Of a stretch of 42,561 nt of DNA, positions 15,444-32,646 are shown piece after piece. Positions within the stretch are counted from its first letter, which is position 1. The number at the start of each line of letters is the position of its first letter. The DNA is from a virus, in the UHGV virus genome UHGV-0163196. One strand, 5' to 3'. The notes under the pieces were generated by a model. The model made no database searches. It was not told where the DNA came from and saw nothing but the letters and a program-made list of their open reading frames with translations. A program made the translations under genes and the position numbers.

Positions 15444-15535
15444 TGTTCACCTTTTGACAAAGGAAATAAAAGTAGCGTGCTGAGTTCTGCCCCTGCACCG
15501 CTACTTAAAGTTACAGATCACGTCATGGGTAGCTA

Positions 15536-16108: not shown

Positions 16109-16170
16109 GCTGCTTACTCTCCGTTAGATCTGTCATTTAGTTAAATTGAACTGCGTTGGGGGAGTCTCCA

Positions 16171-16350
16171 TCACACACTCCCTTCAACTGCTATTGATTC
16201 CAGCGCCTTAGCCACCAGCCCACGAGCAATTTGATGGACAGACGGCGCGACGCCAATATCGGAGCGCTGGCGTTCGCGCTCCTGGATCTTGCAGATTGCG
16301 GCGAACTGGTCGCCAGAGAGTAATACCGGCTTAACGTTTGGCTTTTTCAT
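16171..16350 (-). CDS. Small hypothetical protein (59 aa)
   Basis: Internal start MKKPNVKPVLLSG… of the 112 aa track ORF; the other reading would overlap the upstream 64 aa gene. Confidence 0.3.
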   Translation of the reverse strand: MKKPNVKPVLLSGDQFAAICKIQERERQRSDIGVAPSVHQIARGLVAKALESIAVEGSV

Positions 16351-16525
16351 CCTGTTCACTCCAGAACTTTGCATTCGCTTCGTTGACTTTTTCCAGATTG
16401 CGGCATTCGTTGTTGAAGTTGTTGCGCATCCGCAATTGCTCGGCCTGTTCACGGCCAAAGAGTTTACGCCCGGCGCTTTGCGGGTTTCCTGCAGCCAATT
16501 TCGGGTCATAAATAGCCATGCTCAT
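16331..16525 (-). CDS. Small basic hypothetical protein (64 aa)
   Basis: ATG preceded by AAGGAG with good spacing; lysine/glutamate-rich and probably helical. Confidence 0.4.
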   Translation of the reverse strand: MSMAIYDPKLAAGNPQSAGRKLFGREQAEQLRMRNNFNNECRNLEKVNEANAKFWSEQDEKAKR

Positions 16526-16531
16526 TGCTCC

Positions 16532-17095
16532 TTACTTCGTGCGATGCCAGAAACTGGCGTTATCGGTGTTAATGCTGCGAATGGCGTCGCCTGTGGAGAG
16601 AATCTTCGGTGAAACGTTGTTAACTCGCATGTAGTCGCCAACCTGCTCCAGAACGTCGATAGCCTGATCAAGCTGAATCTCTGATAGCGGGGTCGGATGT
16701 ACCGCACTGAATGCCTCAGCGGGTGCGTAACGCAGCACATCAAGCGCAACAAGGCGAGGATCGGTATCAGGAAGGGCGTTGTCATACTTTGGTGCTACAG
16801 CGCGTACCAGGCGCATAAATTCAGCGTCCATTGCCGTTGGTGCGGTAGAGGTGGGAGAAGCGCCGCTGCCACTACGTGTAATCATGTCACTATCGCGGGT
16901 GTACATCCGGCGCAAGCGGTCTCCGGTTGCAATGCGTGTTGCACGTTCCTGCTTAAGCGTCGTTGCAAGATTCGCAATGACGAGAGCCACAGGAAGCGAG
17001 CAGGTCAGCCTTTCGAACGTATCATCGGAGTAAGTCACCTCGACGGTACCACCAGCGTTATCACTTTCCAGATTAACATTGGTTATCTGTTTCAT
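16532..17095 (-). CDS. Hypothetical protein (187 aa), first gene of the island's left module
   Basis: ORF following a promoter-like AT-rich region at 17100-17250; no recognisable motif. Confidence 0.45.
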   Translation of the reverse strand: MKQITNVNLESDNAGGTVEVTYSDDTFERLTCSLPVALVIANLATTLKQERATRIATGDRLRRMYTRDSDMITRSGSGASPTSTAPTAMDAEFMRLVRAVAPKYDNALPDTDPRLVALDVLRYAPAEAFSAVHPTPLSEIQLDQAIDVLEQVGDYMRVNNVSPKILSTGDAIRSINTDNASFWHRTK

Positions 17096-17378
17096 TGTTC
17101 ATAACCTTTTGCGTTGTTTAAATTCTGATCATTGCATAAATTGCAACATTAGTAAATATCATTGCGCATATTGAAATGGCAAATCGACGTGATACTATGA
17201 CGGTGATCCACCATTGTGTGATTGCATAAACATGGTTATCAAAAGCCCTCGCCTCTCCAGCGCGGGCTTTTTCTTTTCCGCTCCGCAAAGTTGCCGTTTC
17301 CGCATACTTTCACTTAGGCGACGCCCCTCCAAATTCGTAATTACTCTCCGAAAAAACTCTATAGATAAGCAAAAACAT

Positions 17379-17675
17379 GTTGGTTCAGTTGGTTCAGTTG
17401 GTTCAATTTGTAAAGATTGTTGTTTTATAAGGATTATTTCTTTCAGAGTGAACCAACAAAGCCCCGTTTTGAACCAACAAACGCTATTTTCGTGTTGGTT
17501 CAGTGGGAAAGATTTACAGGCCAGCCAGAAAAAGGCGTTGGTTCAATAGCGGCATTTGTTGGTTCAAAATGGGCGTTTGTTGGTTCGGTGTTGGTTCACT
17601 TACAAGCATGTAAATGCATTAAATACATACACTTATATTAATTAAATAGTTACTGAACCAACTGAACCAACAAAA
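17379..17675. repeat. Iteron cluster: candidate satellite replication origin
   Basis: At least 12 copies of the core TTGGTTCA in both orientations (for example 17379-17405 tandem, 17449-17457, 17470-17478, 17494-17502, 17654-17670), interspersed with AT-rich DNA, immediately downstream of the primase-helicase gene. Confidence 0.7.
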
Positions 17676-17696
17676 AAACATCTCGTATGTGTGTTT

Positions 17697-20477
17697 TTAT
17701 TCTTCACCCTCCATCTCGTCGGGTCGTAGCTGGAGCACATAAACGTTTATCTGGCGTCCATCAATTCGCGGGGATTTACGCTGATACCCCCTTCCGCTGG
17801 CTGGCGGTTTCAGCACCCCAGCCCCGGCCAGCACACGGGCAAACTGTTTCGCGTTGAATCCCTTCGCAATCTCACCTTCGAATGCTGCCGGGAACGTGTA
17901 GAACACTATCGGATCAGCATCATGCGCCCCTTTCTGACGGTACCCGGCCAAATCCCGAATCGGCATGTCAGCCGGGTCATAAGGGTAAGGTGCAAATCGG
18001 CTCAGTCCGTATGCATTAAGAAACGCCTCTGCCTGCTCGATGATCTGCTTATGCTCACGGTTCCCCGTGCCAAACTCTTTCACCCAGGCGTTAAAGCCAT
18101 GCTGGATGGCGTCCCGGCTTTCCTGCTCCCCCCAGCCAGTGACAGGCATCCCAAGCACCAGCGCCGCCTCCAGAATGGCGAACCGCTCGCCTACACGATG
18201 AACCTGTTCGCCATAATCAGCGGGGATAAGACTGCGCCAGCGCTCTTGCGCCGCTCTGACAGCTTGTTTTGCCTCCTGCTGGTGGCCTGCAAGCCATTTA
18301 ATCCATTCACGGCCTGCGGCTCCGTGGTTCGTCTGGTAAGCCTCTTTGAGTGCGTCGGCGTGTTGCTTCCCGTTCTGGTACTCATGGTGCGTTACTGATT
18401 TCTCCATCGGTAAATTAAGCAGCCGCACCAGTTGTCCGGCCTTAACTTTCAGCCCACCAGCAGAAAGAAACGTCTCAATGTCCATTTCCCCGGTACTGAT
18501 CGCCACGGTACGCCAGCGCTTTAACTCGCGGTTGCCTCCCTCCTTCGCCCCCTGTAGCTTTCCGGCACCGTTAAACAGCGTGTAAGCTGACGTGGCAACG
18601 TCTTTGGCGCTACTGCCCTGCCCCACTTCGTCCAGCGGTAACAGGCTATCGTTATGCGCTTCCGCTTCGTTGGCGATACCCAGCGCAGTACCGTACCAGG
18701 TGAGGCGCAGGGCATCCGGTTCACCGTATAAACTGCTGGCAATGTTGGCGGTCGTTGTCTTCCCTGCGCTGGACTGTTCGAAAAGGTGAACACCGAAACC
18801 GTCAGCGCCAACAAGCCCGATCAGCGGTGCAGACAGCGCAGCCGCAACACCCAGCATCATTGACGGGTTTCCCAACGCAAGACGCGCCACCGAATCACGC
18901 CAGCTTTCCGGCGTTCCACTGACGGTATAGCCACCAGCCGCCGCACTGCGGCCACTGAATAAAAGCGGTATCTCTGGATCACCAATAACATCACCATCCG
19001 GCATGATGTACGCCCCGCTGTGCCAGCCTGTGGTGTGGCTGATCTGCCACTCCTTGCCGCTACCGGTTCGCTGTAGCCAGTCGGCCAGAATTGCCCGCAA
19101 CGATGGTTTGGTCGTCACACTGACACCGCCGTTTTTCAGAGTTCGCCATCCCTCGCGGTCGCCAATGTCCTCCCAAGGAAGCGCACGGGTAACTTGCCCC
19201 CGATTGCCGGGAACGTCCCAACGCAGGATCAGAAAGCGCTGTCTGGCGTTATCACTCCCCGCACCAGCAATCTCCAGCGGAGAGCATAGCCACGCCTCGG
19301 TATTGATAATTTCCCCTGTGTCTTTGTCCACTTTCGGGGTGATCCAGTGAATGCCATCCGAACGGCTCTCTACTCGCGGTTTAAGGTCGTCGTCGATACC
19401 AGGGCTTTTTTTGCCGCCGTCGATTGCTGTCAGTGTCGCACCCACTTTCTTACCCTCCGGTTGATACATTGAGTCGTTAAATGCTGCTGTGGCCGCTTCG
19501 AGGCCGTATTGCTGGTGGTAGTCGTTCCAGTCCGCTTTATAGTCCACTGGTGGCATGGAAACCCAGCCAGAAACGGCTTTCGCGGCTTTCTCTGCGGCCT
19601 CCTTGCCAGTGTTAACTTTCACTCCTTTAATTCCGTCACTTTCGCCCATCTGGTCGTTATCTGCGGCAATGATGATTTGTGCCTGTGGGTACTTCCGGCG
19701 CATCACTTCGGCAACGGGTAGCAGGTTGCCCGCGTCAATTGCTGCCACTGCCAGCGCGTCCGGGCGCATCAGGTGAACTGAAAGGGCCGTCGCCAGCCCC
19801 TCGGCAATTAAAACGCTCTGCGGCGATTCTGGCGCGTTTACGGCATGATATGCCCCGCGCTTTGCTGAACCTGTCAGGAGTCGCTTCTCTCCCTGCGGTG
19901 TAATGGTTTGCGCTGCTGCCACTGCGCCGGATTCGTCCACCAGCTCCAGCAATAACGAACCATCAGGCATAACCGGATAGTTAAACCCGGTCAGCCCTTT
20001 TGATTGCAGGTAATCAGATTCGCCCTGTGTGGCACTCTGGCGCATTCCGGCATACAGACGGGCAAACGTAGCCCTTCGCTGCTCTGCGTCCCCTGCTGCC
20101 TGTTTCTGGCGCTCCTGCTCACGCTGCTGGCGGTCAGCTTCCAGTTGCTCCCTTCTATGGCTCGCTGCCACCGGGTCGGATTGCGCTGCCAGGTAATCAA
20201 TACCCAGCACGTCAGCGGCAAGCTGTGCCGCCTCCGTAGTGTCGCAGTTGTTAACCCGCTTGATTAAATCCAGCCCGTCACCAGCGCCACACTGGTTGCA
20301 GATAAAGCTACCGCGCCCGTTGTCGTCGAATCTGAAACGGTCTTTTCCACCACATGCAGGGCATGGAGAATGGCGGCGCGATGAATCAGGCACGTCGATA
20401 GACAACCCAGCCAGCACATAAGGCCAGCGCCCTGCTGCGGCGCTGGTCACTTCGCGGATAAGGTCGATATTACGCAT
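17697..20477 (-). CDS. P4 alpha-like primase-helicase (zinc-ribbon, TOPRIM, D5-like helicase)
   Basis: Zinc ribbon CPACGG…CNQCG, TOPRIM-like IIIAADNDQ, Walker A SSAGKTTT; ~925 aa. Start taken at MRNIDLIRE. Confidence 0.85.
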   Translation of the reverse strand: MRNIDLIREVTSAAAGRWPYVLAGLSIDVPDSSRRHSPCPACGGKDRFRFDDNGRGSFICNQCGAGDGLDLIKRVNNCDTTEAAQLAADVLGIDYLAAQSDPVAASHRREQLEADRQQREQERQKQAAGDAEQRRATFARLYAGMRQSATQGESDYLQSKGLTGFNYPVMPDGSLLLELVDESGAVAAAQTITPQGEKRLLTGSAKRGAYHAVNAPESPQSVLIAEGLATALSVHLMRPDALAVAAIDAGNLLPVAEVMRRKYPQAQIIIAADNDQMGESDGIKGVKVNTGKEAAEKAAKAVSGWVSMPPVDYKADWNDYHQQYGLEAATAAFNDSMYQPEGKKVGATLTAIDGGKKSPGIDDDLKPRVESRSDGIHWITPKVDKDTGEIINTEAWLCSPLEIAGAGSDNARQRFLILRWDVPGNRGQVTRALPWEDIGDREGWRTLKNGGVSVTTKPSLRAILADWLQRTGSGKEWQISHTTGWHSGAYIMPDGDVIGDPEIPLLFSGRSAAAGGYTVSGTPESWRDSVARLALGNPSMMLGVAAALSAPLIGLVGADGFGVHLFEQSSAGKTTTANIASSLYGEPDALRLTWYGTALGIANEAEAHNDSLLPLDEVGQGSSAKDVATSAYTLFNGAGKLQGAKEGGNRELKRWRTVAISTGEMDIETFLSAGGLKVKAGQLVRLLNLPMEKSVTHHEYQNGKQHADALKEAYQTNHGAAGREWIKWLAGHQQEAKQAVRAAQERWRSLIPADYGEQVHRVGERFAILEAALVLGMPVTGWGEQESRDAIQHGFNAWVKEFGTGNREHKQIIEQAEAFLNAYGLSRFAPYPYDPADMPIRDLAGYRQKGAHDADPIVFYTFPAAFEGEIAKGFNAKQFARVLAGAGVLKPPASGRGYQRKSPRIDGRQINVYVLQLRPDEMEGEE

Positions 20478-20811
20478 GGTTGCCTCCTGCCACGGTCGCG
20501 CCCATATCATTAATCATGCTTTGCCATATCTCGCGCCCGACGTCAGTCAATCCGTCCTTAGTGACGCAACGATCAAGAAGCTCGATCCCCACGGTTTCCC
20601 ACTGCGGGTAGAACACTTTCATGGCTGCCAGTGTGTAGCTATCGATCAGGCTGCGAACGCCTTTTACTCCATTGACGATTTCCACACGGACGGCGAGGCC
20701 GTCCGCATCAACCATGAAATAGTCCCCGCCGCTGGTGGCGGTAATGTGGTTATACAGTGCCGACGCATACTTATTCGCCAGCGCATTCAGTCGGAAATTT
20801 TTAGTAATCAT
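20470..20811 (-). CDS. Hypothetical protein (113 aa)
   Basis: ORF coupled to the primase start; no recognisable motif. Confidence 0.45.
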   Translation of the reverse strand: MITKNFRLNALANKYASALYNHITATSGGDYFMVDADGLAVRVEIVNGVKGVRSLIDSYTLAAMKVFYPQWETVGIELLDRCVTKDGLTDVGREIWQSMINDMGATVAGGNHA

Positions 20812-20820
20812 GTCGCCCCC

Positions 20821-21447
20821 TCAGTGCGCCAGCGGCATTTCAGGCCAGCCGTTTTCATCCAGTTCAGCTATAAAGCTGTTGTGAAGTTCAGCAAGCGTTT
20901 CACGCCCGAACGGGGTCAACTCGCCGCGCTCCGTGTCCAGCATGGCCTGATAAAAAACAATGGCGTTCGCCGTTCCCTGCTCAATGCCGTAGCGCTCAAT
21001 CATTGCGCCCTCGATGTTGTTCGCCATCGCCAGCCGTTCAGCAAACGGGTAAACCACCATGCCCGCATTACCATTGGAGTAAATCGCCACCTGCGATGAT
21101 GTGCCGTCAGCCTCAGTAACCGTGGTGGTGCCGTTCTCGCGCTTCATCTCAGAAACGAACGTCGCAGCAATCAGCCAGCGCCACATAGTGACGTTATGCT
21201 GCGCGGTGAAGTCGAACCAGCCACGCGCCCCGCCATCAGCAACGGCAAAATGAATGGCGTAGCCGATATCGGGCGTATCGTCGTACTCTCCCGCATCCAG
21301 ACGGCTTACAGCGCTCTCATAGGTGATAATGGCTACATGCTCATACATCCCGGCATCGTTGCGGGTCATGATATTGACGCCGTGCGGTGTGGCTTCGGCG
21401 TGGAACAGGTCGGGATTTCCCGGTTTAATGGTCAGTATATTGCTCAT
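20821..21447 (-). CDS. Hypothetical protein (208 aa)
   Basis: ORF in the island's early operon; no recognisable motif. Confidence 0.45.
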   Translation of the reverse strand: MSNILTIKPGNPDLFHAEATPHGVNIMTRNDAGMYEHVAIITYESAVSRLDAGEYDDTPDIGYAIHFAVADGGARGWFDFTAQHNVTMWRWLIAATFVSEMKRENGTTTVTEADGTSSQVAIYSNGNAGMVVYPFAERLAMANNIEGAMIERYGIEQGTANAIVFYQAMLDTERGELTPFGRETLAELHNSFIAELDENGWPEMPLAH

Positions 21448-21665
21448 GCTTTGCCCTCCCGATATTCACGCATTACATGGTCAGCTAGCTTGCTTTCAGC
21501 CTCGCTCATTGCTTCGGGCACACCGTGTAACAGCGTCAGAATGGAACCTATAAGGCGTGGTAAATCGGGATCTGTTTTATTGGTGGTGCTCTCCAGCCAC
21601 ATGGACAAAACAGCCTGTGCCTGTTCAATCTGGCAGGCAGCATCAATCAGTTGTAACTGGCTCAT
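21444..21665 (-). CDS. Hypothetical protein (73 aa)
   Basis: Small ORF overlapping its neighbours by 4 nt. Confidence 0.35.
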   Translation of the reverse strand: MSQLQLIDAACQIEQAQAVLSMWLESTTNKTDPDLPRLIGSILTLLHGVPEAMSEAESKLADHVMREYREGKA

Positions 21666-21925
21666 GCGCTGCCCTCCGCATCAATTCTGGCTATATCGAC
21701 AATCGTCAGGACTTTACTAAGCCAGCAATACGCGATGGCTGCTTGCTCAACTTCGAGGAGTGGTAATAAATCGGTCATAACGTGAGCCAGCCCATTGCGG
21801 GCGCGGGTCATGCGTTCTGCGGTACGCTCTGCCAGCGTGAAAGAGTCAGGGTACGGCTGTTCGCGGGATAGCATCGCCTCGGCCTCAAGATCTGCAGGAT
21901 GGCGATAGATGGTATGAATGTTCAC
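21662..21925 (-). CDS. Hypothetical protein (87 aa; GTG start or internal Met)
   Basis: ORF in series with the neighbouring small genes; start codon uncertain. Confidence 0.35.
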   Translation of the reverse strand: MNIHTIYRHPADLEAEAMLSREQPYPDSFTLAERTAERMTRARNGLAHVMTDLLPLLEVEQAAIAYCWLSKVLTIVDIARIDAEGSA

Positions 21926-22101
21926 GCTGCCACCTCCTGAATACGAGTAATACGAACGTGCTTATAACCGCCTTTATTCGCCAGTAGTTGCGCAGTCGAT
22001 TTAGCTGTTTCTGGACTGGTGCTAGTCATGGTGTAGTGAATGCCGACGGTGTTACCGCGCTTGTTAACAGCGTATCCGTCGATCTGGAAGGTTTTACGCA
22101 T
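21922..22101 (-). CDS. Small hypothetical protein (59 aa)
   Basis: Hand-translated MRKTFQIDGYAVNKRGNTVGIHYTMTSTSPETAKSTAQLLANKGGYKHVRITRIQEVAA; below the ORF track length cut-off. Confidence 0.3.
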   Translation of the reverse strand: MRKTFQIDGYAVNKRGNTVGIHYTMTSTSPETAKSTAQLLANKGGYKHVRITRIQEVAA

Positions 22102-22972
22102 TTCCGACCTCCATTGCTAAACGGGACTGGATAGCTGCCGCTTTACTGCCTAATTGCAGGTAAGTACGAGTTATCGCAGGGTTGCTATGACCCAGCATTT
22201 CAGAGGCCACTAATAGGCCCTGTTCGCCACCTGCGGACATGAGGTTAAAGGCGGCTATTTTGCGGCTTGAGTAGGCGCTCAGGCGCAATTTAGCGTTAAT
22301 GAAACGGGTAAACCACGCCATGACGCCATGAAGTTTGCGCCAGATGGTTTGGCGAGTAACGCTACCTTCCAGACGTTGACAACGGTTACTTTCGATTTGA
22401 GAGCGGGAAAATACCAGGTCGTCCTCCACCAGATTCCGATCCTGACGGTCACGCAGCCGCTTGATAATGCCGGGGGGTAACTGTTTGGTGTCGTGCTTGA
22501 CGTCAGCCTTAGCCACCAGCCCGAACACAATCGCCTGTTCTTCGTCGTTCATATCGGCGGCCAGTTCATCACAGCCGATACTATCCCACTTCATGTAGGC
22601 GATATGGTCAGCGGCGAGCCGCGCGGCGTCCTTGCGCTGCTGGCGCACAATTTCAATACCTTTGCGGGTTGCCCGCGCTTCTGCGGCTTTGGTCTGTTTG
22701 GAAACGATAATTGTCGCCTGTCCAGTTTCCCAATTGATGCAGGAATAGCGCAGGTTGCAAACGTCGCTGGTACGCCAGCCGGTTACGGTCGCAATATCCC
22801 ACCAGAGCAACACCCAATCGGGCTGTGTCTGCTGGATGCGCTCGCGTAGCTTGCGCTGCTCGTCACGGTCATAGACAGGGGTCATGGTGCGACTGCCCTT
22901 TGTGCTCGCCGCTTTAACGACATTGCCGCGCAGCTCGCGGGCTTTGGCTGTCAGAGTCTGGAGGTTAAACAT
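22094..22972 (-). CDS. Second tyrosine recombinase (short phage-integrase family, no arm-binding N-domain)
   Basis: About 292 aa from MFNLQTLTAKAREL; C-terminal LGHSNPAITRTYLQ with a candidate catalytic Tyr and conserved Arg/His positions. Confidence 0.65.
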   Translation of the reverse strand: MFNLQTLTAKARELRGNVVKAASTKGSRTMTPVYDRDEQRKLRERIQQTQPDWVLLWWDIATVTGWRTSDVCNLRYSCINWETGQATIIVSKQTKAAEARATRKGIEIVRQQRKDAARLAADHIAYMKWDSIGCDELAADMNDEEQAIVFGLVAKADVKHDTKQLPPGIIKRLRDRQDRNLVEDDLVFSRSQIESNRCQRLEGSVTRQTIWRKLHGVMAWFTRFINAKLRLSAYSSRKIAAFNLMSAGGEQGLLVASEMLGHSNPAITRTYLQLGSKAAAIQSRLAMEVGNA

Positions 22973-23153
22973 GACGCACCTCCGGCACTGGCAGACGTGC
23001 GGCCAGAGACAAAATAAAGTGCGGCGCAAGGATGCGGCGGGCTTCGCGTTCGGTCGCAGCCTCAACGGACAGACGGCAAGGTTTGGCTTTTTTATCGTGG
23101 CGATTCAGCGCGAGAAAGCGCCAGGTGAATTTTGAGTGTGCGGATCTAGCCAT
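22965..23153 (-). CDS. Small protein (possibly Icd/Ash-like)
   Basis: 62 aa, MARSAHSKFTWRFLALNRHDKKAKPCRLSVEA…; recalled resemblance to small Icd-like prophage proteins only. Confidence 0.35.
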   Translation of the reverse strand: MARSAHSKFTWRFLALNRHDKKAKPCRLSVEAATEREARRILAPHFILSLAARLPVPEVRHV

Positions 23154-23473
23154 TTTTAGCGGCTCCTAGAACATATTGAAGGAGTCTCGCCAGATGCTGC
23201 TAAACATGGGTGGCGAGACGTGACGGGGTTAGCAGACTGGCGTTCTAGGAAACCAGCAGGCGTTAAGCCTCCCCACCACGCCCCGCCATAAATCGGGGGT
23301 ATGGTTGGTTTTCGGGCGTAAAAATACCGCTATACGGAAATCAGCGGCTACCCGCTAGAACGTTCAGGCTGCTAAACCCGGCACCCGTTTTGTGAGGTGC
23401 GAAATAATCATAACCACACTACCCCGTTAAGCGCAAGGGAAATATCCCCTGCGCCCACAATGCAAACTTGTGA
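23154..23473. promoter_or_regulatory. Repeat-rich intergenic region (candidate recombinase/regulator binding sites)
   Basis: Motifs CTAGAAC and GCTGCTAAAC recur in direct and inverted orientation at 23161-23205, 23227-23250 and 23353-23377. Confidence 0.4.
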
Positions 23474-24544
23474 TTAGTACCCGCGAGAAGCGTAAACTCG
23501 TGCCATGCCAGCCCAATGAGAGAAAAGAATTTCCCACTTAATTGGGTTGTAGGTAATACTTCCATCGACTGCGGCAGCATTCCATGCCCGATCAGAAATA
23601 GAGCTATCTTTAGCAGTTTTCCCCCATTCAACAATATCCCTTGCTAAAGCCTGTACACATGCTCGACTGACTACCTTTTCGTCAACGTACGCCCCAACAT
23701 CAGAGCATGACTCCATACTCATGTTCAGGCTATTTTTAAGGGACTCCAGCCCGGCCACTGACATAAAGCGACGACCATTAGCGTATGCAACACCGTCATT
23801 CCTGATAGTGAACTTAACAGTGTGGAATGCGTCAACAATCATCCGCTGCTCTGGCGTCGGGTTCTGCCATAGCACAAGGTTAATCTCTCTCTCAGAAGCT
23901 ATTGATTCTGCTTTCTCACGCTTAACTCGTGCATCCCGTTCTGCCTGGTATTGTTTTTGATTTTCATCATGAGCCTTTTGGTAACTAGAGGCTAATGCGT
24001 CTCTGTTTTTGGCAAATGCTGCAATGCTATTTTTGAAATCGCTTCTGCTAACCTTGTTTAACCCCATACTCCAGCGGTCATTTTCGTAATCATCATAAAT
24101 GGCATCAACTTTTGCCGGATTACTCAGCACAGTCGCCAGATTAACCGGAATTTTAGCCATCTCGTCACTGATTCTCGCTACATGTTCGAAAGTCGATATA
24201 GAGCCAACTTCATGACTCCCATACTCATGATAAGCGGCATAAAAAATTGGAATAGATTGAGGTTTTTCGTTCACTGACTTAATGATGCTTTTTTCATCAC
24301 ATGACTGTTCACCCCATTTGAAAACACTTTTCCCACCATTTTTGTATGTGTTGCAATCATCAATACCCAAACGAACCAGCGCATCCCATCCGGGCCGTTT
24401 CTTGTAATCCTCGCTCTTGACAACATGCATTGTGGTTAGGGCTTTCGCAGGATCTAACTTGCCAGCGGTACAAGACACGATAGGAAAGGCCAGAGAAGCG
24501 CAGGCTGCTATCCTGAAAAGGCTCGTCAATCTTTCTTTTTTCAT
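23474..24544 (-). CDS. Lipoprotein of unknown function (island cargo)
   Basis: 356 aa; N-terminus MKKERLTSLFRIAACASLAFPIVSC carries a signal peptide with lipobox-like Cys; AT-richer than its surroundings; flanked by ~0.3 and ~0.9 kb non-coding DNA. Confidence 0.6.
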   Translation of the reverse strand: MKKERLTSLFRIAACASLAFPIVSCTAGKLDPAKALTTMHVVKSEDYKKRPGWDALVRLGIDDCNTYKNGGKSVFKWGEQSCDEKSIIKSVNEKPQSIPIFYAAYHEYGSHEVGSISTFEHVARISDEMAKIPVNLATVLSNPAKVDAIYDDYENDRWSMGLNKVSRSDFKNSIAAFAKNRDALASSYQKAHDENQKQYQAERDARVKREKAESIASEREINLVLWQNPTPEQRMIVDAFHTVKFTIRNDGVAYANGRRFMSVAGLESLKNSLNMSMESCSDVGAYVDEKVVSRACVQALARDIVEWGKTAKDSSISDRAWNAAAVDGSITYNPIKWEILFSHWAGMARVYASRGY

Positions 24545-24708
24545 CGTCCTAATGCTCTTTCAAACCAAGAATGTAGGACATAGTAAATTGTGGTTAATGG
24601 CAAGTCGATATAAAGGCCGGGTTATTGGCTTCGGTGCCAATATCATTTCTCCGAAATTTCATAACGCCTGTAATCGCTCGTTTCCCCATCTTGGGGACAT
24701 TTCAAAAC

Positions 24709-24828
24709 TGCGAATCAAAGTGCGAATGGAACTGCGAATTCGCAAAGAGAGAGCGCCGCTCAAAGCAGGCCGGATAAGGCTTCGCGGACATATTGCGAAT
24801 GCGAATCCACCAGAAACGAAACGCGAAT
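24709..24828. repeat. GCGAAT repeat cluster including the palindrome TGCGAATTCGCA
   Basis: Six copies of (T)GCGAAT within 120 bp; the 12-bp palindrome at 24733-24744 also occurs twice in the helper terS gene. Confidence 0.55.
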
Positions 24829-25384
24829 CACCCATAAACAAAACCGATACGCAGGGAGCGTACTGCCCGTATTCAATCGGCCGAAAAGTCAGCCGATTAA
24901 AATCATGCCCGGCTATCCCCTGAAATTTCAGGAGATCGAGAGCCACCAGCAGAGAACCGTTCATGCCATCGGTAACTTGCAGCCCGAAGCTCAAATCTGA
25001 GCGTTGACCGCCAGCCAGAAGAAACCATTTTAAATCCCGCGCCTTCTCTTTGGATGAACAGGGTTACTCCCCGTAATGCTGTGAACTGCCACGATGATTC
25101 GGGGTTGTGTTGCGCTGGCCTTTGAGTCCCGCACAAACACTGACCCACAAAATTTTTGTAGGTGACTGGCCCTCTTGATGAGGTGCTGTTTTGCGTAACC
25201 CTTAATGAGTTGTGCAAAGGCTCAACCCTTCAAAAGGGTTGCCTAACCACCGGCGATAGTAATAACCGCCAACCTATGAACACTATGAACACCTTTGAGC
25301 ATTTTTCTATAAACATTCCACTACTGCCCTATTTGATGCCTTTCTCTGGCTGGCCTGTGTAAGTTACCGTTGCTGGGAACTGAC

Positions 25385-25420
25385 AATAAAAAAGGCTTGC
25401 CCCTCTCAGGTAACAAGCCT
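25385..25420 (-). terminator. Putative intrinsic terminator downstream of alpA
   Basis: Stem aggcttg/caagcct at 25393-25420 with a run of A on the plus strand at 25386-25392 (U-run on the minus transcript). Confidence 0.4.
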
Positions 25421-25438
25421 TGTCTATCGCTCTGGATC

Positions 25439-25651
25439 TCACTCACTACAGATTCCGCGCTTTTGGCTCTGTCTTCCGATCCACGCCTCCACCTCATCGC
25501 GATACCAGCAATTGCGGCCGCCAACTTTGAAGGGCATCGGAAAGCCGTTCCCCTCATCCTTCAGAAATTCATAGAACGCAGAATCAGAACGGTAGCGTAG
25601 ACGGGCTTTAACTTCGACTTTGAGCAAAATATCACTGTTAGATATGGACAT
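25439..25651 (-). CDS. alpA: AlpA-family transcriptional regulator/excisionase
   Basis: 70 aa with the typical AlpA pattern (…FPMPFKVGGRNCWYRDEVEAWI…), directly downstream of the integrase gene. Confidence 0.75.
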   Translation of the reverse strand: MSISNSDILLKVEVKARLRYRSDSAFYEFLKDEGNGFPMPFKVGGRNCWYRDEVEAWIGRQSQKRGICSE

Positions 25652-25793
25652 AAAAACCTCATTATATATTCGATATAATTATATATGATTTGAATAAAAA
25701 AAACGCATTCCGGTTAGCTTTGGGCATAAAAAAAGCTGGCTTAAAGCCAGCTATACCCGTTTGAAATCATGATTATCCAGAAATGGATGTGCC

Positions 25794-27023
25794 TTACACA
25801 ACCAGCCTCAAGCCCTTATCGCCGCTGGTCTCCAGTATTTCGCCACACTCTGCGGCCTCGATAAAGTCCCCCCACCATTGCATTAAAACCCGGCGTTTTT
25901 CCAGATAGTCGCTACGGTTATAAACATTTCGAATCGCATCGGCGCTTTTGTGAGCGAGTGCAGCCTCAATCACATCAGGGTTGAACCCCTCGTCATTTAA
26001 AACTGTAGATGCCAACGCCCTGAACCCATGAGGAACAATCAGCCCTTTAAACGACGTTTTGTGTATCCCGGCCTGAGTCGCACAGCGTGAGATCGGCTTA
26101 TTTTCTTTTCGCCATGAGGGGAAAACATAATCGCAGCGCTTCCACTTTTCGGCCTCTTTAAGCACGTTTATAGCCTGGCTCGATAATGGGACTACGTGGG
26201 GGCGCTTTCCTTTCATCCGGCTTGCAGGGATTTGCCAGATTGAGTTATCAAAATCAATCTCATTCCAGAGAGCGCCGCCAGCCTCCGAAGGCCGGACCAT
26301 CGTAATGATCTGGAATAATAATGCCAGCTTTGATGGCTCCCATAAGCTCAACTCGTTCCATGCGCTTAAAAATTCGGGCAACCGCTCTTTCTGTAAAGTC
26401 GCTCTTGGCTCGTTTTTTTCAGCCGGGAATGCTTTACCAATTTTCGATAGCGGGTTGTGCTCAATAACCCCAATGTTTACCGCATAATCCATTATGGCGT
26501 TGATGGTAATAACCATTTTCGTAAGCGTTGATGGCCTTTCCCTGAAAGGTTTAAAAGCCTGAATAGTATCGGCTGCGTTTATTTTATGTACCGTGGTATG
26601 CCTAAAAATCGTGGAAAGATGCTTCAACGTCACATTGTGCGATTCAAGCGTGTTGCTTCTCGCACCTTCTTTAATCTTGATTTTTAGCCATTCATCGGCA
26701 ACGGCCTGAAATGACTGCGCGTACATTTTACGCTGTTCATTCCTGGCATCTTTTTTGACTTCGTTCGGATCTATCCCTCGCGCTACCATACGGCGCAGTT
26801 TCGAACGTTCCTCCCTCGCTTCGGACAAAGTAAACTCCGGGTATCGTCCAATAGTATAGGTTTGTCTCTTCTTCGTTACCGGGTGTACATACCGAAAACG
26901 CCATGACTTACCGCCCCGGCTTGTGATGTAAAGCAACAAACCGAAACCATCGTGCAAACTGAAATCCTTGCCCTGTGCCTTCGCGCTTTTCACTTCGACG
27001 CTAGTTAGTGGCCTAACAATCAT
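25794..27023 (-). CDS. int: P4-type tyrosine integrase
   Basis: 409 aa; N-terminal arm-binding domain typical of P4-like integrases (…DGFGLLLYITSRGGKSWRFRY…) and a C-terminal catalytic domain. Confidence 0.85.
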   Translation of the reverse strand: MIVRPLTSVEVKSAKAQGKDFSLHDGFGLLLYITSRGGKSWRFRYVHPVTKKRQTYTIGRYPEFTLSEAREERSKLRRMVARGIDPNEVKKDARNEQRKMYAQSFQAVADEWLKIKIKEGARSNTLESHNVTLKHLSTIFRHTTVHKINAADTIQAFKPFRERPSTLTKMVITINAIMDYAVNIGVIEHNPLSKIGKAFPAEKNEPRATLQKERLPEFLSAWNELSLWEPSKLALLFQIITMVRPSEAGGALWNEIDFDNSIWQIPASRMKGKRPHVVPLSSQAINVLKEAEKWKRCDYVFPSWRKENKPISRCATQAGIHKTSFKGLIVPHGFRALASTVLNDEGFNPDVIEAALAHKSADAIRNVYNRSDYLEKRRVLMQWWGDFIEAAECGEILETSGDKGLRLVV

Positions 27024-27237
27024 TCAACACCTCTCTGGCTACCATGTAATGCAAACGGCGCATGATTCTCTTTCTAGTCCCTCATGTACCGAATCAAAGC
27101 GAAATCCGGCGAATAAATCCGCACATGTTCGGAGTGTCATTTTTATGGTTCAGGCCAGTAACGCCGTATGATTCCGAACGATAACGCACTGATTAATAGA
27201 TATTAGTTGCATAAGGTACAGATATGCAGTCATTGGA

Positions 27238-28458
27238 TTATCCTTTGCGGTTAGACCAGAAGTCGGCGTTTTGTTTGTTCAGGGAAGCGATGCTGGTCAT
27301 GCCCATATTTGGACGTTGTGCATCGCCCGTGGTGCTGCGGGTGTTTCGCCCTTTGGCAATCTCTGACACGGCGTTAAACGCCATATCTACCGATTGCTTG
27401 GGCAATTTGCGGATATCTGCATCACCGACAACCTGGCGAACCAGTGTTTTGTCAGCGGCGGACAGCACATCACGTTTGAACGCGGTCGGTTTCACCTTAC
27501 GGCTCAGATCGATACCCGGGACGATAACTTCGGCACGATAAGCAGCGTCACCAGTAATCGTGGTTTCTTCTTCATCGTCCTCGCCGTCACCGGTCGGATT
27601 ATCGTCAGGCTTATTGTCGTTATCGCCCGTCGCAGTTCCTTCGAGCTTAGCCAGCAGGGCTTTGAGCAAGGTTTTGATATCGTCCTCGCCGTCGCCGGTT
27701 GGCTCTCCGCCCATTTCCGGCTTTTTGTCCGGCAATGGTTGCTGCGGTGAAAGGTTAATGTTGAGGTTAACGCCGCTCGGCAGATCCCCTTCGTCACCCG
27801 TTACCGCCGCTGGCGCAGAGTCCAGCAGTTCGTTCATGGTGTCAGCGTCACCCGTTTTGATGGCCGTGCGCATGCGGGTCCACCAGCTTTTCTTTTGATT
27901 TGCCATTGTGTCTCTGTCTCCAATTGCACAACGATTTCCGGCTCTGCCTTTGGGGACAAGAGCCACATGGTTTCCGGTAATATCGACCTGCTCGGCTTTA
28001 CCTGGCTCGGTCTGCTCGTACTCCGCGTCATAGCCGCACGACACTTCACGCAGGCCATCTTCGATAAGCTGAATGGCGTTTTCGTCTTTGACGATAAGGT
28101 CAGCCAGCATCAAATCAGACTGATCACCAGTCCCGCGCCGAACGTTCTGAAGATGCCCGACCGCAAGCTCTTTCCAGTTCTCGGGGTTGACCAGCCGCAC
28201 ATTTCCGTTTTCATCTTCAGGATGCAGGATCGTGATGCTCATCCCTTCGAATGAGGCGAGCGTGGCCGGATGGAATACCTGCTCAGGAGAGCGCGTTACG
28301 ACTATTTCACCGAACTTATCGGGTTTCAGTTTTGGCAGGTCATCAGCACCATAGAGCTGCTTACCTGTTCGTCCTATCGGCACGTCTTTGCACAGCAGCG
28401 AGCCGTCAGCCAGCTGATAACGGGTTTCCCCCAGCCGGGTATTGAAAAAATATTTCAT
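27238..28458 (-). CDS. Capsid scaffold/maturation protein (putative), with acidic Gly/Asp-rich linker
   Basis: 406 aa ORF downstream of the head-morphogenesis gene; central low-complexity acidic region. Confidence 0.45.
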
Positions 28459-28472
28459 GGTTTACCTGCGAT

Positions 28473-29246
28473 TCAGGCGAGATAAGAATGAGGGTTGGGG
28501 AAGACGATTTCTTTGTAACAGCGGCAGTTCGGGAGCTCGCCAGCGTGACCGGTCATGCCGTCAAGCGTTGGAGGTCGGCCCCATTCGACAAACTTCCCTT
28601 CCATCTCTCGATGAGAATGCCGGACGTCGCCATCTTCGGCTGTACGCCAGATATAACCATTCGAGCCGATTGACAGCGCACGCGCCTGATCCAGTGCACC
28701 GGTTGCGCGCCCAAGCTCAGTCCGGGCGATAAGGTTCGCTCGTGAGCGTGACACGTCACCGGAAGCAGCTATCTCTTTCGCGAATGGCTCAGCGCGGCCA
28801 CCAGTTACTACAGCCTCGATGGCCTTGTTCTGAATGTCATACACCCGATCGGCGGCCTCAAGAGGCAGAGATTTGATGTACTTAATTTGCTCGGCGACGA
28901 TGGATTTCATCACCTGGCCTACCGGGGCGCGGTCAACCATGTTGCGCAGCTCTGCGCTGATGTTCCGGCTGTGCTGACGCCACTGCTTTTCATTCTGGCG
29001 CGCTATGTCTGCGGTGAAGTTCTCAGCAACCTTCGTCGCCCAGGGGGTGATGATTTCGCTGTAGCGCTCCAGCGCATCCATTATTTCGGTGACGCTATCG
29101 TTTGAACCATCGTAGCGCCCATTTACGATATCCCCGACCGCCCGCGCTATCTGCCGTAGGCTCGTTCGATATCGGATCTCCGCCTGGCGACTCTGGCGGT
29201 TTGTCGCCAAGTTCGCCGATGCCTGGCGGCGCTTCGTCTTCGGCAT
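28473..29246 (-). CDS. Head morphogenesis protein (Mu F / SPP1 gp7-like)
   Basis: 257 aa ORF immediately after the portal gene, with a conserved C-terminal region resembling Mu_F proteins. Confidence 0.65.
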   Translation of the reverse strand: MPKTKRRQASANLATNRQSRQAEIRYRTSLRQIARAVGDIVNGRYDGSNDSVTEIMDALERYSEIITPWATKVAENFTADIARQNEKQWRQHSRNISAELRNMVDRAPVGQVMKSIVAEQIKYIKSLPLEAADRVYDIQNKAIEAVVTGGRAEPFAKEIAASGDVSRSRANLIARTELGRATGALDQARALSIGSNGYIWRTAEDGDVRHSHREMEGKFVEWGRPPTLDGMTGHAGELPNCRCYKEIVFPNPHSYLA

Positions 29247-30564
29247 TCTCGATATCCTCGTCGGTAATGGATGCCCCGATGCCGGTGACGTCAGAGTTTT
29301 CGCGCAGGTCGGTCATCGCCGCCTTACGCGTCATCAATCCGTCGCCCAGCGCGGTACTGATCGCGTTGGTGGTGTTTACGGCCACCGTTGATCGGTCAAC
29401 GTCTGACATTTGCCATAGCGGGTTAAACTCAAACGTGAAATCGTCCGGCAGCGGCTTTCCGAGTTCCGAGCGGTGCATAATGTCCAGTATCCGGCGCATC
29501 GGCAGCCGTAAGCGGCGCTCCTGCAATGAGCTCACCCGGTCGTAATAGTTGGCGAGGTCTGCATCACCAGTAGAGAAGCCTTTCGGGGATTGACCGAACA
29601 GGCGTACCAGCGGGATACCAACGGCACCGCTGATCTGCTCAGCAAACTGCGAAAGAATGTCATCCAGACCGCTGAAGCTGTACTGGTGGGTTTCGAACTT
29701 ATCCCGCGAGTCCATGAGCGTCATGCCTTCATTGCTCTGGAACTGGCGGATCAGGTCGATGTTCTTCAGCAGCGCCTCGAACGCCGGGCCGCCAAGCGCG
29801 ATAAGCTCGCGCAGCTTCTCCACGCTGTAGGTACGCAGATGTGCTTTGTAGACCAGCTGCGCCGCGCCGACAGTGGCGCTGTCGAACGCAGTAAGCCGAT
29901 CCCAGATACGCTCTACAACCGACATTCCCCATTCGTTTTCGGTCATCTTCTGCTGGAATGGCAGCGTGACGCCATCAAAGCGGATCAGGCGGCTGTGATG
30001 GATGCGCCAGGCCGGAATGCCCGTTGCGGTGGTCACCACGTCGTAAAACTCAGGCTTGCCGAGGTCCGGCCCCATCTCTTTAATGCGGCGTGTCAGCACC
30101 GGGTTAATCATCCAGCGGTCGAGCGGGAGAATGCCCTTAAACTTGCCCTCGCCAATGGTTTCGAGTCGCAGCGGGGTCATTGGTGCTTGCCCCTCGATCA
30201 TGATGAAGCCGACCGCGCCGCCGTAGAGGCGCGACCATTTCAGCACGTCGTTCAGCGCATCCCAGATCTGCAACTCATCCAGTTGCGCTTCGAGGGTGCC
30301 ACGGTCTTTGGCGTCAATCTCCGAAGTGATGCGAATGCCCTTTCGGGTCATATCGTCCGGGATAGCGTCGACCGCTTCACCGATAACCCACGAACCGCGA
30401 TATGACCATTCCACCAGCATGCGGTTGCGGCTGGTGGAGTTCGCCCGGTAGGTCGATGCTGAATGCTGGTTAGGCGTCTGCATCCCAACGCGGGCGACGA
30501 AGTTCTCGTAGCTGTCAGCGGTGGGCTGTGCCGTTCGCTGAGAGGATTGCTTGTTTCGTGCCAT
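29095..30564 (-). CDS. Portal protein
   Basis: About 490 aa ORF directly downstream of terL; start probably at MARNKQS. Confidence 0.7.
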   Translation of the reverse strand: MARNKQSSQRTAQPTADSYENFVARVGMQTPNQHSASTYRANSTSRNRMLVEWSYRGSWVIGEAVDAIPDDMTRKGIRITSEIDAKDRGTLEAQLDELQIWDALNDVLKWSRLYGGAVGFIMIEGQAPMTPLRLETIGEGKFKGILPLDRWMINPVLTRRIKEMGPDLGKPEFYDVVTTATGIPAWRIHHSRLIRFDGVTLPFQQKMTENEWGMSVVERIWDRLTAFDSATVGAAQLVYKAHLRTYSVEKLRELIALGGPAFEALLKNIDLIRQFQSNEGMTLMDSRDKFETHQYSFSGLDDILSQFAEQISGAVGIPLVRLFGQSPKGFSTGDADLANYYDRVSSLQERRLRLPMRRILDIMHRSELGKPLPDDFTFEFNPLWQMSDVDRSTVAVNTTNAISTALGDGLMTRKAAMTDLRENSDVTGIGASITDEDIENAEDEAPPGIGELGDKPPESPGGDPISNEPTADSAGGRGYRKWALRWFKR

Positions 30565-31967
30565 CAGGCTTGCCTCCCGAGCAATTCCCAAATATCCATT
30601 GTTGTATCGGTCGGCGCGAACGCCATTATGAAAGCGTCGGCAATGTTAGGTGAGGGGATATCGCGCTTAGCCAAATCTTTCTTGCTTTCAACCATAACCC
30701 TACCGTTACGATCAAAGTCTCGGTGCGGGGTCGTCAGCTCAAGCTTTAGTTTCTCCAGGTGCGGGCACGATGAATCGATACTTATCAACTCATCAACAGG
30801 ATATTCCTCTCCATTTTTCACCGCGTTGAACGTATTACGAAAGCGATCAGCTACCAGCCACCATGCCTGGGCTTTCAGATTGGCAAAGAAGTCTTTATTC
30901 GGAATGCCGTTATATTCAGAATCTGGCTCGTTCACACCAGCGCCAGCATTGAAGCGTTGATAATTAACTGGTCGTGAATAAGGATTTTCACGTCGTCTGT
31001 CTTCGTTAATTTCCGAGAATTTAGCACCAGCAGAAGCGCCAACACCAATGGAGTCATAAACGATATCAGCACTTCTCTCTGTGGCTGCCTGATATGCCCG
31101 CTGGCAGCTTTTAAGAAGCTCGTCTTCTTTTGCCTTCCATTCATCAGCCCAATACACAACGGAGCCATGACGATAAACATTGGAGCACTTATCCGCACCG
31201 CTATCGGCAACGTCGAAGCCTATTCGCTTTCGTCCGTTTGGCTCAAAACCAAGCACCTTATGGGCATCTATTGCAGCCTCAATCCACGAAAGTTTAATAA
31301 TTGCCGCGTCATCATCAGATTCGGGAACCCCCATATAAACGTGGTCAAACCCCTCCGGATCACGACGCTTTGCAGCCGAGATAACCTTAAGCATGGTGTC
31401 TGAGAGGAATGGGTTTTCGTCGTAATTGATTTTTCTCACCAACGTATCTTCTGGTGGATCAACAACGAAATTACGCCATACAAAGTCAGTCACCAGACCA
31501 GGGTTAAAAATAAACCAGCATTCAGATCCGCTTTTACGAATGGTTGGTTCCAGTATCTTCCACTGGTATTCCGTTAGTGCATGGGCTTCTTCAAGCCACA
31601 AAACGCTGATACCTTCCAGGGATTTAATTTCTTCGATATTGCGCCATAAACCGTAAAACACGAATTCTGAGCCAGTGACCCGGTTGATAATTTTATTATT
31701 CAGAATTCGGAAGCGATGCCGCAGCCCAAACCGTTCAATCTGTATTTTGAGCAGGGTATAAACCGACTCTTCGATTTTGTTCTGAATTTGACGTGCGCAA
31801 CAGAAACGCAGGTTGTATTTATTTGCCAGAAAGACAGCAAACCCAGCAGCATCCCATGACTTTGACGATGAGCGCCCACCAAAAAGTACTTTATTTCGAG
31901 CCTGTGTCGTCCAGAAGTTCCTTAGGGCCGGATTCAGGGTCGGTTTGGATGTCAGAGTAGAAGTCAT
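30564..31967 (-). CDS. terL: Terminase large subunit (start uncertain)
   Basis: ATPase plus nuclease architecture (…VLFGGRSSSKSWDAAG…, …VLWLEEAH…); overlaps the 3' end of terS. Confidence 0.8.
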   Translation of the reverse strand: MTSTLTSKPTLNPALRNFWTTQARNKVLFGGRSSSKSWDAAGFAVFLANKYNLRFCCARQIQNKIEESVYTLLKIQIERFGLRHRFRILNNKIINRVTGSEFVFYGLWRNIEEIKSLEGISVLWLEEAHALTEYQWKILEPTIRKSGSECWFIFNPGLVTDFVWRNFVVDPPEDTLVRKINYDENPFLSDTMLKVISAAKRRDPEGFDHVYMGVPESDDDAAIIKLSWIEAAIDAHKVLGFEPNGRKRIGFDVADSGADKCSNVYRHGSVVYWADEWKAKEDELLKSCQRAYQAATERSADIVYDSIGVGASAGAKFSEINEDRRRENPYSRPVNYQRFNAGAGVNEPDSEYNGIPNKDFFANLKAQAWWLVADRFRNTFNAVKNGEEYPVDELISIDSSCPHLEKLKLELTTPHRDFDRNGRVMVESKKDLAKRDIPSPNIADAFIMAFAPTDTTMDIWELLGRQA

Positions 31968-32646
31968 TAAGGTCACGATCTCCATTACCGTCATCAACGC
32001 CAGCATCACGACGAAGGCGATCCGCTTCCAGAGACACTTTGTCAGTGGAGGCGAGCCGATGCTCTATAGATGCCTTTGTGAATTCCAGCGACTCAATGCG
32101 GGCCGTGTTACGGTGCATGGCTTTTTGCGCAGATGAAATTAGCTCGTGAAGATTATTGGCGGTATCGCCATCAGCTATTTCAAGCTCAGTCTGCCAGCGG
32201 CCAATATTTTCAGCAGCGGTAAGGTTCGCCGCACGCAACCAGAAAAGCTCATCATCAAGAGTGAGCGCCTGAGCATCCTCGGTAATGGCATCAGATAGAA
32301 GCATTCGGCGTCCATAGCCACCATGCTTCAATGCGTTCTGATTTCCGGGTCTGGAATTATAATGAGCGCGTTTCGTTTCTGGTGAGTTTGATGGTTTTGC
32401 GACTTCGCAGTTATCCACTAAGCCCGCTGGTGGCTTACTCTTTGCCACTTTCTCCTTTTGCGAATTCGCAGTTTTATTCGCACTTTTCTTTTGCGAATTC
32501 GCACTACCATTCGCAATTTTGATATAGCGCTTTGCAGTCGAGTAATTCAGTCCCTGCGCTTCACACCATTCTTTGGGGGAAATGCCGGTTTTGGCATGTT
32601 CGGACAGGAACCGTTGCTGAAGCTCGCCCCAGTCCGGCTTTGCCAT
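31891..32646 (-). CDS. terS: Terminase small subunit (HTH N-terminus)
   Basis: 251 aa directly upstream of terL; N-terminal HTH-like segment (ISPKEWCEAQGLNYSTAKRYI); contains palindromic DNA repeats. Confidence 0.55.
   Translation of the reverse strand: MAKPDWGELQQRFLSEHAKTGISPKEWCEAQGLNYSTAKRYIKIANGSANSQKKSANKTANSQKEKVAKSKPPAGLVDNCEVAKPSNSPETKRAHYNSRPGNQNALKHGGYGRRMLLSDAITEDAQALTLDDELFWLRAANLTAAENIGRWQTELEIADGDTANNLHELISSAQKAMHRNTARIESLEFTKASIEHRLASTDKVSLEADRLRRDAGVDDGNGDRDLNDFYSDIQTDPESGPKELLDDTGSK
32459..32516. repeat. Palindrome TGCGAATTCGCA x2 plus ATTCGCA half-sites inside terS (candidate pac/TerS recognition site)
   Basis: Full copies at 32459-32470 and 32492-32503, half-sites at 32476-32483 and 32508-32516; encodes the repeated peptide ANSQK. 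Confidence 0.4.

Follow-up and report, generated by a model that had tools for sequence, protein, structure and literature searches.

UHGV-0163196, a virus genome of 42,561 nucleotides that is referred to below as the window, is a lambdoid prophage that is read on the minus strand and runs from the tail genes to the lysis genes and the immunity region. Embedded in it is a satellite island of which the genes share the orientation of the prophage late genes, and within this island a small non-coding cassette carries a cluster of TGCGAAT heptamers that returns in the prophage gene for the small terminase subunit (TerS; the gene is terS, and the variant found here is called type A). Some of these heptamers are arranged as the 12-bp palindrome TGCGAATTCGCA, which is present at only three sites in the 42.5-kb window, i.e. 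once in the island (24733-24744) and twice in terS (32459-32470 and 32492-32503), and a near-palindrome (TGCGACTTCGCA, one mismatch from TGCGAATTCGCA) is located at 32398-32409. Not a single copy of TGCGAATTCGCA arose in 100 dinucleotide-preserving shuffles (0 expected), and 995 kb of unrelated genomic loci contained none either. When the literature was searched for the 12-mer, only an unrelated NRF1 paper came up, with no mention in a phage context and no bacterial regulator tied to the motif. The core hexamer GCGAAT is not enriched over the window as a whole (36 copies seen, 35.3 expected), and two short clusters, at 24710-24828 and 32460-32514, account for 13 of the 36 copies. The island cluster consists of plus-strand copies at 24710, 24722, 24734, 24795, 24801 and 24823 together with the reverse copy contributed by the palindrome, while the terS cluster holds six. 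An earlier account of this DNA, made from its letters only (the sequence-only reading), had reported the palindrome three times, two of them inside the helper small-terminase gene, with five more GCGAAT copies in the island cluster (24709-24828), and had judged chance occurrence very unlikely; positions and counts were confirmed, the shuffles support the judgement on chance, and the gene (31891-32646) indeed matches the small-terminase family PHROG 370.

The likeness between the two places reaches beyond the palindrome itself. Island positions 24717-24826 (+) turned out to be colinear with nt 161-280 of terS (-), or codons ~54-93, with a Smith-Waterman score of 59 against 20.4 +/- 2.2 (maximum 29) for shuffled sequences. 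Both carry, in the same order and orientation, AAAGTGCGAAT..AACTGCGAATTCGCAAA, then TTGCGAAT(G/T)CG and then the 18-mer CACCAGAAACGAAACGCG, with perfect cores of 11, 17 and 18 bp, and the N5 spacing of the island heptamers is that of the terS heptamers. The counterpart of the TTGCGAAT(G/T)CG element in the terS of a sister prophage (L102; L numbers designate the loci compared) is an intact third palindrome TGCGAATTCGCA. The following ~50 bp of the island match a terS of another type (type B), namely AAACCGATACGCnGGGnGCGTAC of Klebsiella phage ST16-OXA48phi5.2 (nt 244-296 of the phi5.2 terS). A BLAST comparison of the island with the rest of the window yielded, besides the attachment-site flank, only 24717-24752 versus 32451-32519; BLAST by itself shows a core of 30-36 bp, and the longer homology was obtained via Smith-Waterman alignment with shuffled controls. 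Because of the colinear alignment, the exact 18-mer and the type-B match next door, the island block can be read as a decayed, frame-shifted fragment of the terS interior. The sequence-only reading had in this respect understated the similarity, as ~120 bp of terS appear colinear with the island segment.

The placement of the island palindrome in non-coding DNA, as claimed earlier, was borne out by annotation and by substitution patterns. No gene is annotated by RefSeq at the block in the near-identical locus of E. coli ABWA45, and no coding signal was found in any of the six frames when the window was compared with six other island variants, nearly all substitutions being non-synonymous. On the latter ground, the open reading frames (ORFs) at 24417-24923 (+) and 24659-24994 (-), as well as a coding sequence annotated in E. 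coli EC2001, were rejected as genes. Stops occur in several frames of the block, and its reading frame is destroyed. The same six variants revealed that substitutions are unevenly spread: 0-3 of 45 positions are changed in the heptamers and 0-1 of 15 in the 18-mer outside the overlapping motif, against 17-28 of 151 in the rest of the block, which amounts to a divergence of ~3% for heptamers and 18-mer versus ~14% elsewhere. The first three heptamers are unchanged in all island variants compared, with changes in that stretch confined to single spacer positions, and the second of the two overlapping TGCGAAT copies is mutated in some islands.

The cassette is kept in at least 11 islands, where its left flank is one of three and its position in the island one of two. 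Its hairpin is present in every island block and also beside the type-A fragment of a related satellite (L239, see below), and where the hairpin of the window has a C.A mismatch, other islands have a G-C pair. A standard terminator was ruled out for this hairpin, as a T-run is found on neither side. Rfam gave no match inside the block, and a promoter and terminator scan around it was uninformative, with one promoter-like site versus six expected.

In terS, the heptamers lie in DNA that seems to encode a linker. A single-sequence AlphaFold2 model of TerS predicted a three-helix N-terminal domain (residues 6-38; predicted local distance difference test score, pLDDT, 75-89), a disordered stretch (residues 45-120, pLDDT <50) that is encoded by the repeat-bearing DNA, and a long helical hairpin (residues 123-214, pLDDT >95), in agreement with the layout of DNA-binding domain, linker and oligomerisation domain that is usual for small terminases. 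Searches of Pfam, NCBIfam and PDB sequences with TerS returned nothing informative, the best being HTH_23 (E=0.15) and the helix-turn-helix (HTH) of IS66 TnpA (E=0.0017). Six TGCGAAT half-sites are contained in 32459-32515, and on the coding strand the heptamers are read in frame as GCG-AAT (Ala-Asn), giving the peptide IANGSANSQKKSANKTANSQ just past the N-terminal domain. Type-A heptamers generally occur at 12-bp and about 33-bp phasing and are often paired as TGCGAATTCGCA. Among the 76 IMG/VR loci that contain TGCGAAT-N5-TGCGAATTCGCA, 63 have it in a terS gene and at the same gene position, with TerS proteins 55-100% identical to that of the window; the others comprise 8 members of this island family, 3 loci with no TerS match (one of them a truncated terS-type locus) and 2 stretches of unrelated high-GC DNA.

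Selection on the motif was examined in 32 distinct type-A terS 5' regions and 69 distinct TerS proteins, which were gathered via protein patterns outside the repeats. In the 32 type-A genes, the third positions of the palindrome codons (GGT GCG AAT TCG and ACT GCG AAT TCG) have an entropy of 0.00-0.20, compared with 0.95-1.63 at the four-fold sites of most of the invariant residues of the N-terminal domain (Gly7, Leu9, Ala18, Gly21, Pro24 and Ala38), and this pattern of codon usage indicates that the motif is constrained at the DNA level beyond the need of the protein. Across the 69 proteins, the heptamer moreover changes with the N-terminal domain: in genes with AKRYIK-type domains it is TGCGAAT, x4-8 in most members (only 2 copies in a few variants), in those with ARRYIK-type domains TGCGCAA x4-6, and in those with GAIRKRAKK-type (phi5.2-like) domains GGTACGCA, x5-9 in full-length genes. 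A fourth domain type (L398) has GTTTCCAC x7, of the GTTTCCA heptamer class, at the equivalent place. The heptamer of each lineage sets its peptide repeat (ANSQ, AQ, GTQ and VST). This co-variation of heptamer and domain type is suggestive, although linkage of adjacent DNA could explain part of it. Because of their fixed position in terS, their frozen third positions and this co-variation, the heptamers are most likely cis-acting DNA elements that are read by TerS.

These observations lead us to favour, with some reserve, the explanation that the cassette is a terS-derived mimic of a pac site, which would let a helper with a type-A TerS package the satellite. The N-terminal domains of a type-A TerS oligomer would bind the heptamer array as the recognition part of a headful pac, in the phage as well, and a phasing of 12 bp would fit domains that follow one another in a TerS ring. 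Headful packaging is usual for phages with a TerL (large terminase subunit) of the Terminase_3/PBSX family. The source of the cassette itself would be the inner part of a terS that shares its specificity type with the resident gene; of this, the satellite would have lost the frame and kept the heptamers, their 12-bp phasing and the 18-bp element. After excision of the island and replication from its own origin, type-A TerS-TerL could then cleave the resulting island concatemers and start headful packaging on them into helper capsids. No island protein was found to have a type-A N-terminal domain, and TerS is the only protein encoded in the window with a type-A three-helix (HTH-like) domain. 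The suggestion of the sequence-only reading that the island carries a recognition site of the helper TerS has in this way gained colinear homology, selective conservation of the motif, co-variation with domain type and parallel fragments in related satellites, from which we infer its role as pac and its use in packaging; the alternative that it had offered, a shared regulator-binding site, found no support, as the only type-A three-helix domain in the window is that of TerS.

Several observations weigh against this explanation, next to the linkage mentioned above. The block and a type-A terS are found in the same prophage in the window and in two further loci (L001 and L002), and the block is also found inside prophages with unrelated TerS and TerL (L003, L004, L007, L103/L401, L120/L342, L340 and L345), of which the TerS is DUF2280-type or of another type. 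In one of these (L120), the island proteins are ~100% identical to those of the window. E. coli ECONIH5 and EC2001 have a type-A terS nowhere in their genomes. The block is thus not tied to the resident prophage. It also appears to be dispensable for persistence of the island, because L372, an island at this very site of which the integrase is 100% identical, cleanly lacks it. In E. coli, a type-A terS is nevertheless rare (8 complete genomes versus 358 prophage copies with this head module), and two of the four block-bearing islands reside in type-A prophages, an enrichment that speaks for the explanation (Fisher P=0.0026, on small numbers, as there are only four islands). Finally, the TerS-like island protein noted in the sequence-only reading is indeed present as the DUF2280 protein, which has 66% identity to the TerS-position protein of two sister prophages (L003 and L007) and is absent from the island of ABWA45, which resides in a type-A prophage. 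This similarity suggests a second packaging route with helpers of another terminase type, and the DUF2280 TerS homologue could even provide packaging alone.

Related satellites were found to contain fragments of other TerS types. Of 120 loci retrieved with pairs of GGTACGCA, 96 were in type-B terS genes, and the scan also brought up satellites with non-coding type-B fragments. In one satellite, with a primase 71% identical to that of the window (L239, 5852-8395), a 52-residue N-terminal remnant of a type-A TerS with TGCGAAT x4 and the cassette hairpin is followed first by a type-B fragment and then by a GTTTCCAC cluster; next come an ORF with likeness to the C-terminal part of TerS only, and a DUF2280 gene. 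Two others combine clusters of GGTACGCA, GTTTCCA and TGCGCAA (L325, 5060-5540) or B-like motifs, a pair of TGCGAATTCGCA palindromes spaced by 32 bp and repeats of TGCGCA (L359, 18300-18620), and in all three satellites the clusters lie in non-coding DNA upstream of the DUF2280 gene. The fragments in L239 are co-oriented with the satellite genes, whereas the fragment in the window is inverted. ORFs that resemble the C-terminal (oligomerisation) part of TerS and have no N-terminal DNA-binding domain adjoin the DUF2280 gene in L239 (7213-7659), L359 (18596-18904) and L372 (14629-14928), and no such ORF is present in the window island. A satellite with related integrase and primase (L398) encodes an apparently intact TerS of the fourth N-terminal type (16689-17366), with seven GTTTCCAC/GTGGAAAC copies in its linker-coding DNA. 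The TGCGAAT block was seen in only about 10 of 80 primase-related satellites. Tentatively, and as something possible rather than probable, satellites of this family may carry exchangeable pac cassettes, i.e. pieces of terS reduced to TerS-binding heptamers, some with three specificities, which different helpers could package. If true, such multi-type cassettes would explain why the window cassette persists in prophages of another terminase type, and the TerS family would display a natural code of at least four N-terminal types, each with its own heptamer in its own linker-coding DNA.

Other explanations of the block have to be weighed against packaging mimicry. The island might once have had its own type-A terS, of which the block would be a functionless pseudogene that matches the helper gene by ancestry. 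The destroyed frame with its stops would fit this, as would the intermediates in related satellites (the intact TerS of L398, and the 52-residue remnant followed by decayed repeats in L239), the presence of the block in prophages with other terminases and its absence from L372. Neutral decay should however strike heptamers and spacers alike, in conflict with the ~3% versus ~14% divergence, and the invariance of the first three heptamers, the behaviour of the block as a discrete cassette with three left flanks and two island positions, and the retention in several satellites of multi-type repeat arrays without the rest of the genes make such a relic unlikely. Alternatively, the block could be a decoy that titrates TerS or triggers abortive cleavage, and so lowers helper packaging. 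SaPI Ppi is one satellite factor known to interfere with the packaging of its helper. Such interference is frequent among satellites, another example being Gpi of PLE (10.1101/2024.04.22.590561), and all evidence for the heptamers as TerS sites applies equally to a decoy. The sequence gives no separation between decoy and packaging mimicry, which are not exclusive, but binding of TerS-TerL by a replicating satellite would as a rule lead to its packaging as well, and a decoy function seems improbable to us.

An operator array for another regulator of island, prophage or host, with sites at both places, would agree with the phased direct and inverted heptamers that are typical of operators, and with the location of the block in the interval that separates alpA from the next island gene, which in satellites is a zone of regulatory elements (PMC10111431). 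We nevertheless consider it quite improbable, given that the heptamer tracks the TerS N-terminal type across four classes, that 63 of the 76 IMG/VR loci are inside terS at a fixed gene position, that among the proteins of the window TerS alone has a type-A three-helix domain, that neither the remainder of the 42.5-kb window nor ~1 Mb of unrelated DNA contains the motif, and that the literature search tied no bacterial regulator to it. Read-through from alpA could in turn yield an RNA that is complementary to the helper terS mRNA over ~110 nt, with perfect stretches of 11, 17 and 18 nt, and that silences terS. The block has the terS sense on the plus strand with the island genes on the minus strand, the relative orientation is the same in L346/L082, and the island already has a P4-type C4 regulatory RNA. 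Yet orientation is not conserved, as the type-A and type-B fragments of L239 are co-oriented with the satellite genes; conservation centres on the heptamers and their phasing with diverged spacers, which suits protein binding over an RNA duplex; no promoter-like site for an antisense transcript turned up; and the block persists where the complementary terS is absent, so that antisense silencing is very improbable. As clustered direct repeats in non-coding island DNA, the heptamers could finally be taken for iterons of the island replication origin, a view to which we attach hardly any credence: a stronger and separate GTTGGTTCA array is located directly downstream of the primase gene, and primase-adjacent arrays occur in nearly all of the 80 satellites versus the TGCGAAT block in about 10. 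The GCGAAT cluster at 24709-24828 was rejected as the origin on the ground that the primase-adjacent iterons fit an origin and the cluster does not.

The proposed pac mimic can be placed beside known packaging signals. The pac of P1 consists of hexamer TGATCA/G repeats in pacA, that of P22 lies in gene 3, and SPP1 has pacL and pacR boxes. The heptamer array resembles these in having its presumed recognition elements in or next to the terS frame and, like P1 and SPP1, in using several short repeats, which the small subunit binds there and would bind here. It differs in its TerS family (PHROG 370, with no Pfam or PDB match), in its motifs and in the position of the repeats in linker-coding DNA, where AN(S)Q, AQ, GTQ and VST are the peptide repeats that they dictate. 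Among satellites, P4, SaPIbov5 and EcCICFT073 share the cos sites of their helpers. The helper-embedded phage-inducible chromosomal island (PICI) 11capE has a 258-bp segment that is 90% identical to the helper cos region (PMC10111431). The window island would be like these four in bearing a packaging signal of the helper; their terminases are however of the cos type, whereas here the array is a presumptive pac, the terminase is of the Terminase_3/PBSX type and so presumably headful, and identity is confined to short motifs.

The closest likeness is with PLE and its helper ICP1, where a satellite that is otherwise unlike its helper carries a short segment resembling the helper pac region (Boyd & Seed 2024). 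In PLE, the segment that mimics the ICP1 pac is 89 bp long and 71% identical to it, and its 14-bp perfect core is present in all PLEs and required for transduction (10.1101/2024.04.22.590561); here, ~110 bp are colinear, and the perfect cores of 11, 17 and 18 bp are conserved in all island variants. Differences are that the ICP1 pac is intergenic and its TerS unidentified, whereas the site proposed here is in the helper terS frame with TerS as candidate binder via co-variation, and that the island copy is a recognisably decayed gene fragment. The mimicry by PLE has been proven experimentally, whereas that by the island cassette is proposed from sequence comparison. Mimicry of packaging signals by satellites was thus already known, and what the present comparison adds is an uncharacterised TerS family, an apparent gene fragment reduced to cis elements and multi-type arrays in relatives. 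If the cassette is indeed a pac mimic, a pac recognition element would have been identified for a widespread enterobacterial TerS family that has neither a solved structure nor a Pfam model. The way in which small terminases recognise pac is so far little understood, and the pairing of domain type and heptamer bears on that question. A helper-embedded satellite would moreover obtain headful packaging without an intact terS by retaining the cis-acting core of the gene, and the cassette would be a sequence signature predicting which terminase types mobilise a given satellite, which bears on the spread of cargo genes.

Table 1. Features of the cassette, the helper terminase region, the satellite island and the surrounding prophage in the window
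Feature	Position	Strand	Remarks
Non-coding cassette, ~270 bp	24690-24960	+	Apparent decayed type-A terS interior fragment plus hairpin; proposed pac-site mimic
Three TGCGAAT heptamers, 12-bp phasing	24709, 24721, 24733 (24709-24744)	+	Third forms palindrome TGCGAATTCGCA
Two overlapping TGCGAAT (TTGCGAATGCGAAT)	24794-24806	+	Aligned with third terS palindrome position
18-mer CACCAGAAACGAAACGCG	24808-24825	+	Identical to terS 32367-32384 (-), codons for PETKR
Sixth GCGAAT	24823-24828	+	After 18-mer
Hairpin AATCGGCC-GAAAAGTC-AGCCGATT	24875-24898	+	In cassette, in no terS gene sampled
Prophage small terminase gene, TerS type A	31891-32646	-	PHROG 370 'terminase small subunit', E=1.7e-75; upstream of TerL
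Proposed TerS-recognition part of pac	32357-32516	-	Inside linker-coding DNA
Palindromes TGCGAATTCGCA in terS	32492-32503, 32459-32470
Half-sites ATTCGCA	32509-32515, 32476-32482		terS array
TerL	30564-32009		Terminase_3/PBSX match
Portal gene	29095-30591		Prophage
DUF2213 gene	27238-28458		Prophage
Gp24 cement-protein gene	14255-14737		Prophage
Major capsid gene, DUF2184	13302-14243		Prophage
Satellite island, ~12.5 kb	~14745-27214	-	Between DUF2213 gene and Gp24 cement-protein gene
Island integrase	25794-27023	-	Arm-binding tyrosine recombinase
Island AlpA	25439-25651	-
Island P4-type C4/CI antisense RNA	23206-23293	-	Rfam 75 bits vs gathering score 45
Island primase, Toprim/DUF927	17697-20510	-
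Island GTTGGTTCA iterons, 6-7 copies	17301-17720		Directly downstream of primase gene
Island DUF2280 protein	14970-15443	-	Pfam DUF2280, E=6.6e-39

The island as a whole is, judged by its gene content, a PICI/P4-like, helper-embedded satellite. That the region is an island or satellite had been proposed before, and its integrase, AlpA, primase, iterons and C4 RNA (the latter positioned between the gene for a 356-residue protein and the genes for an Icd-like protein and a second tyrosine recombinase, which are further island products) bear this out, together with its precise absence from sister prophages. Two such prophages without the island (L102 and L124) have 28 bp between the DUF2213 stop and the Gp24 start; the island junctions display a short common core (GGTAC...ATGCA), and the vacant site in L124 reads GGCATCCGGTAC/GAATATGCAGTCATTGG. 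The iterons are likely the island origin. Such arrays adjoin the primase gene in nearly all of the 80 primase-related satellites, and their sequence shifts with primase lineage (GAACCAA, AACCCGT, TAACCCA and GGGACAA). With helper-embedded PICIs, the island shares the order of int-alpA, regulatory zone with a C4-type RNA, primase-ori and late zone, an organisation that Gram-negative PICIs have too, as well as integration in the late region of a lambdoid prophage in the orientation of the late genes (PMC10111431). It differs from them in its site, theirs being inside late genes and this one a 28-bp intergenic spacer (PMC10111431; Tommasini, Mageeney & Williams 2023), and in its head module, which is not of the lambda type. 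The intergenic spacer may be an additional type of site for helper-embedded PICIs.

E. coli ABWA45 (NZ_CP022154.1) and ET791 (NZ_CP100906.1), both with a type-A helper, have this island at the site that it occupies in the window, and so do E. coli ECONIH5 and EC2001, Apirhabdus apintestini and several IMG/VR contigs. The window is identical to IMG/VR contig 3300045988_113726. An integrase-based scan of genome contigs yielded one close relative, in Apirhabdus apintestini (L007), the remainder being distant integrases of the Acinetobacter type. The island of ABWA45, otherwise 97-99% identical, lacks 276 bp of island non-coding DNA (24920-25195), and in ET791, ECONIH5 and others the region from the cassette to alpA has been swapped for a two-gene module (DUF6516/TumE-like). 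Elsewhere in the prophage, CGATATC occurs four times within ~180 bp (29101-29280) where the portal and head-morphogenesis genes meet, and this cluster is present in every related prophage examined.

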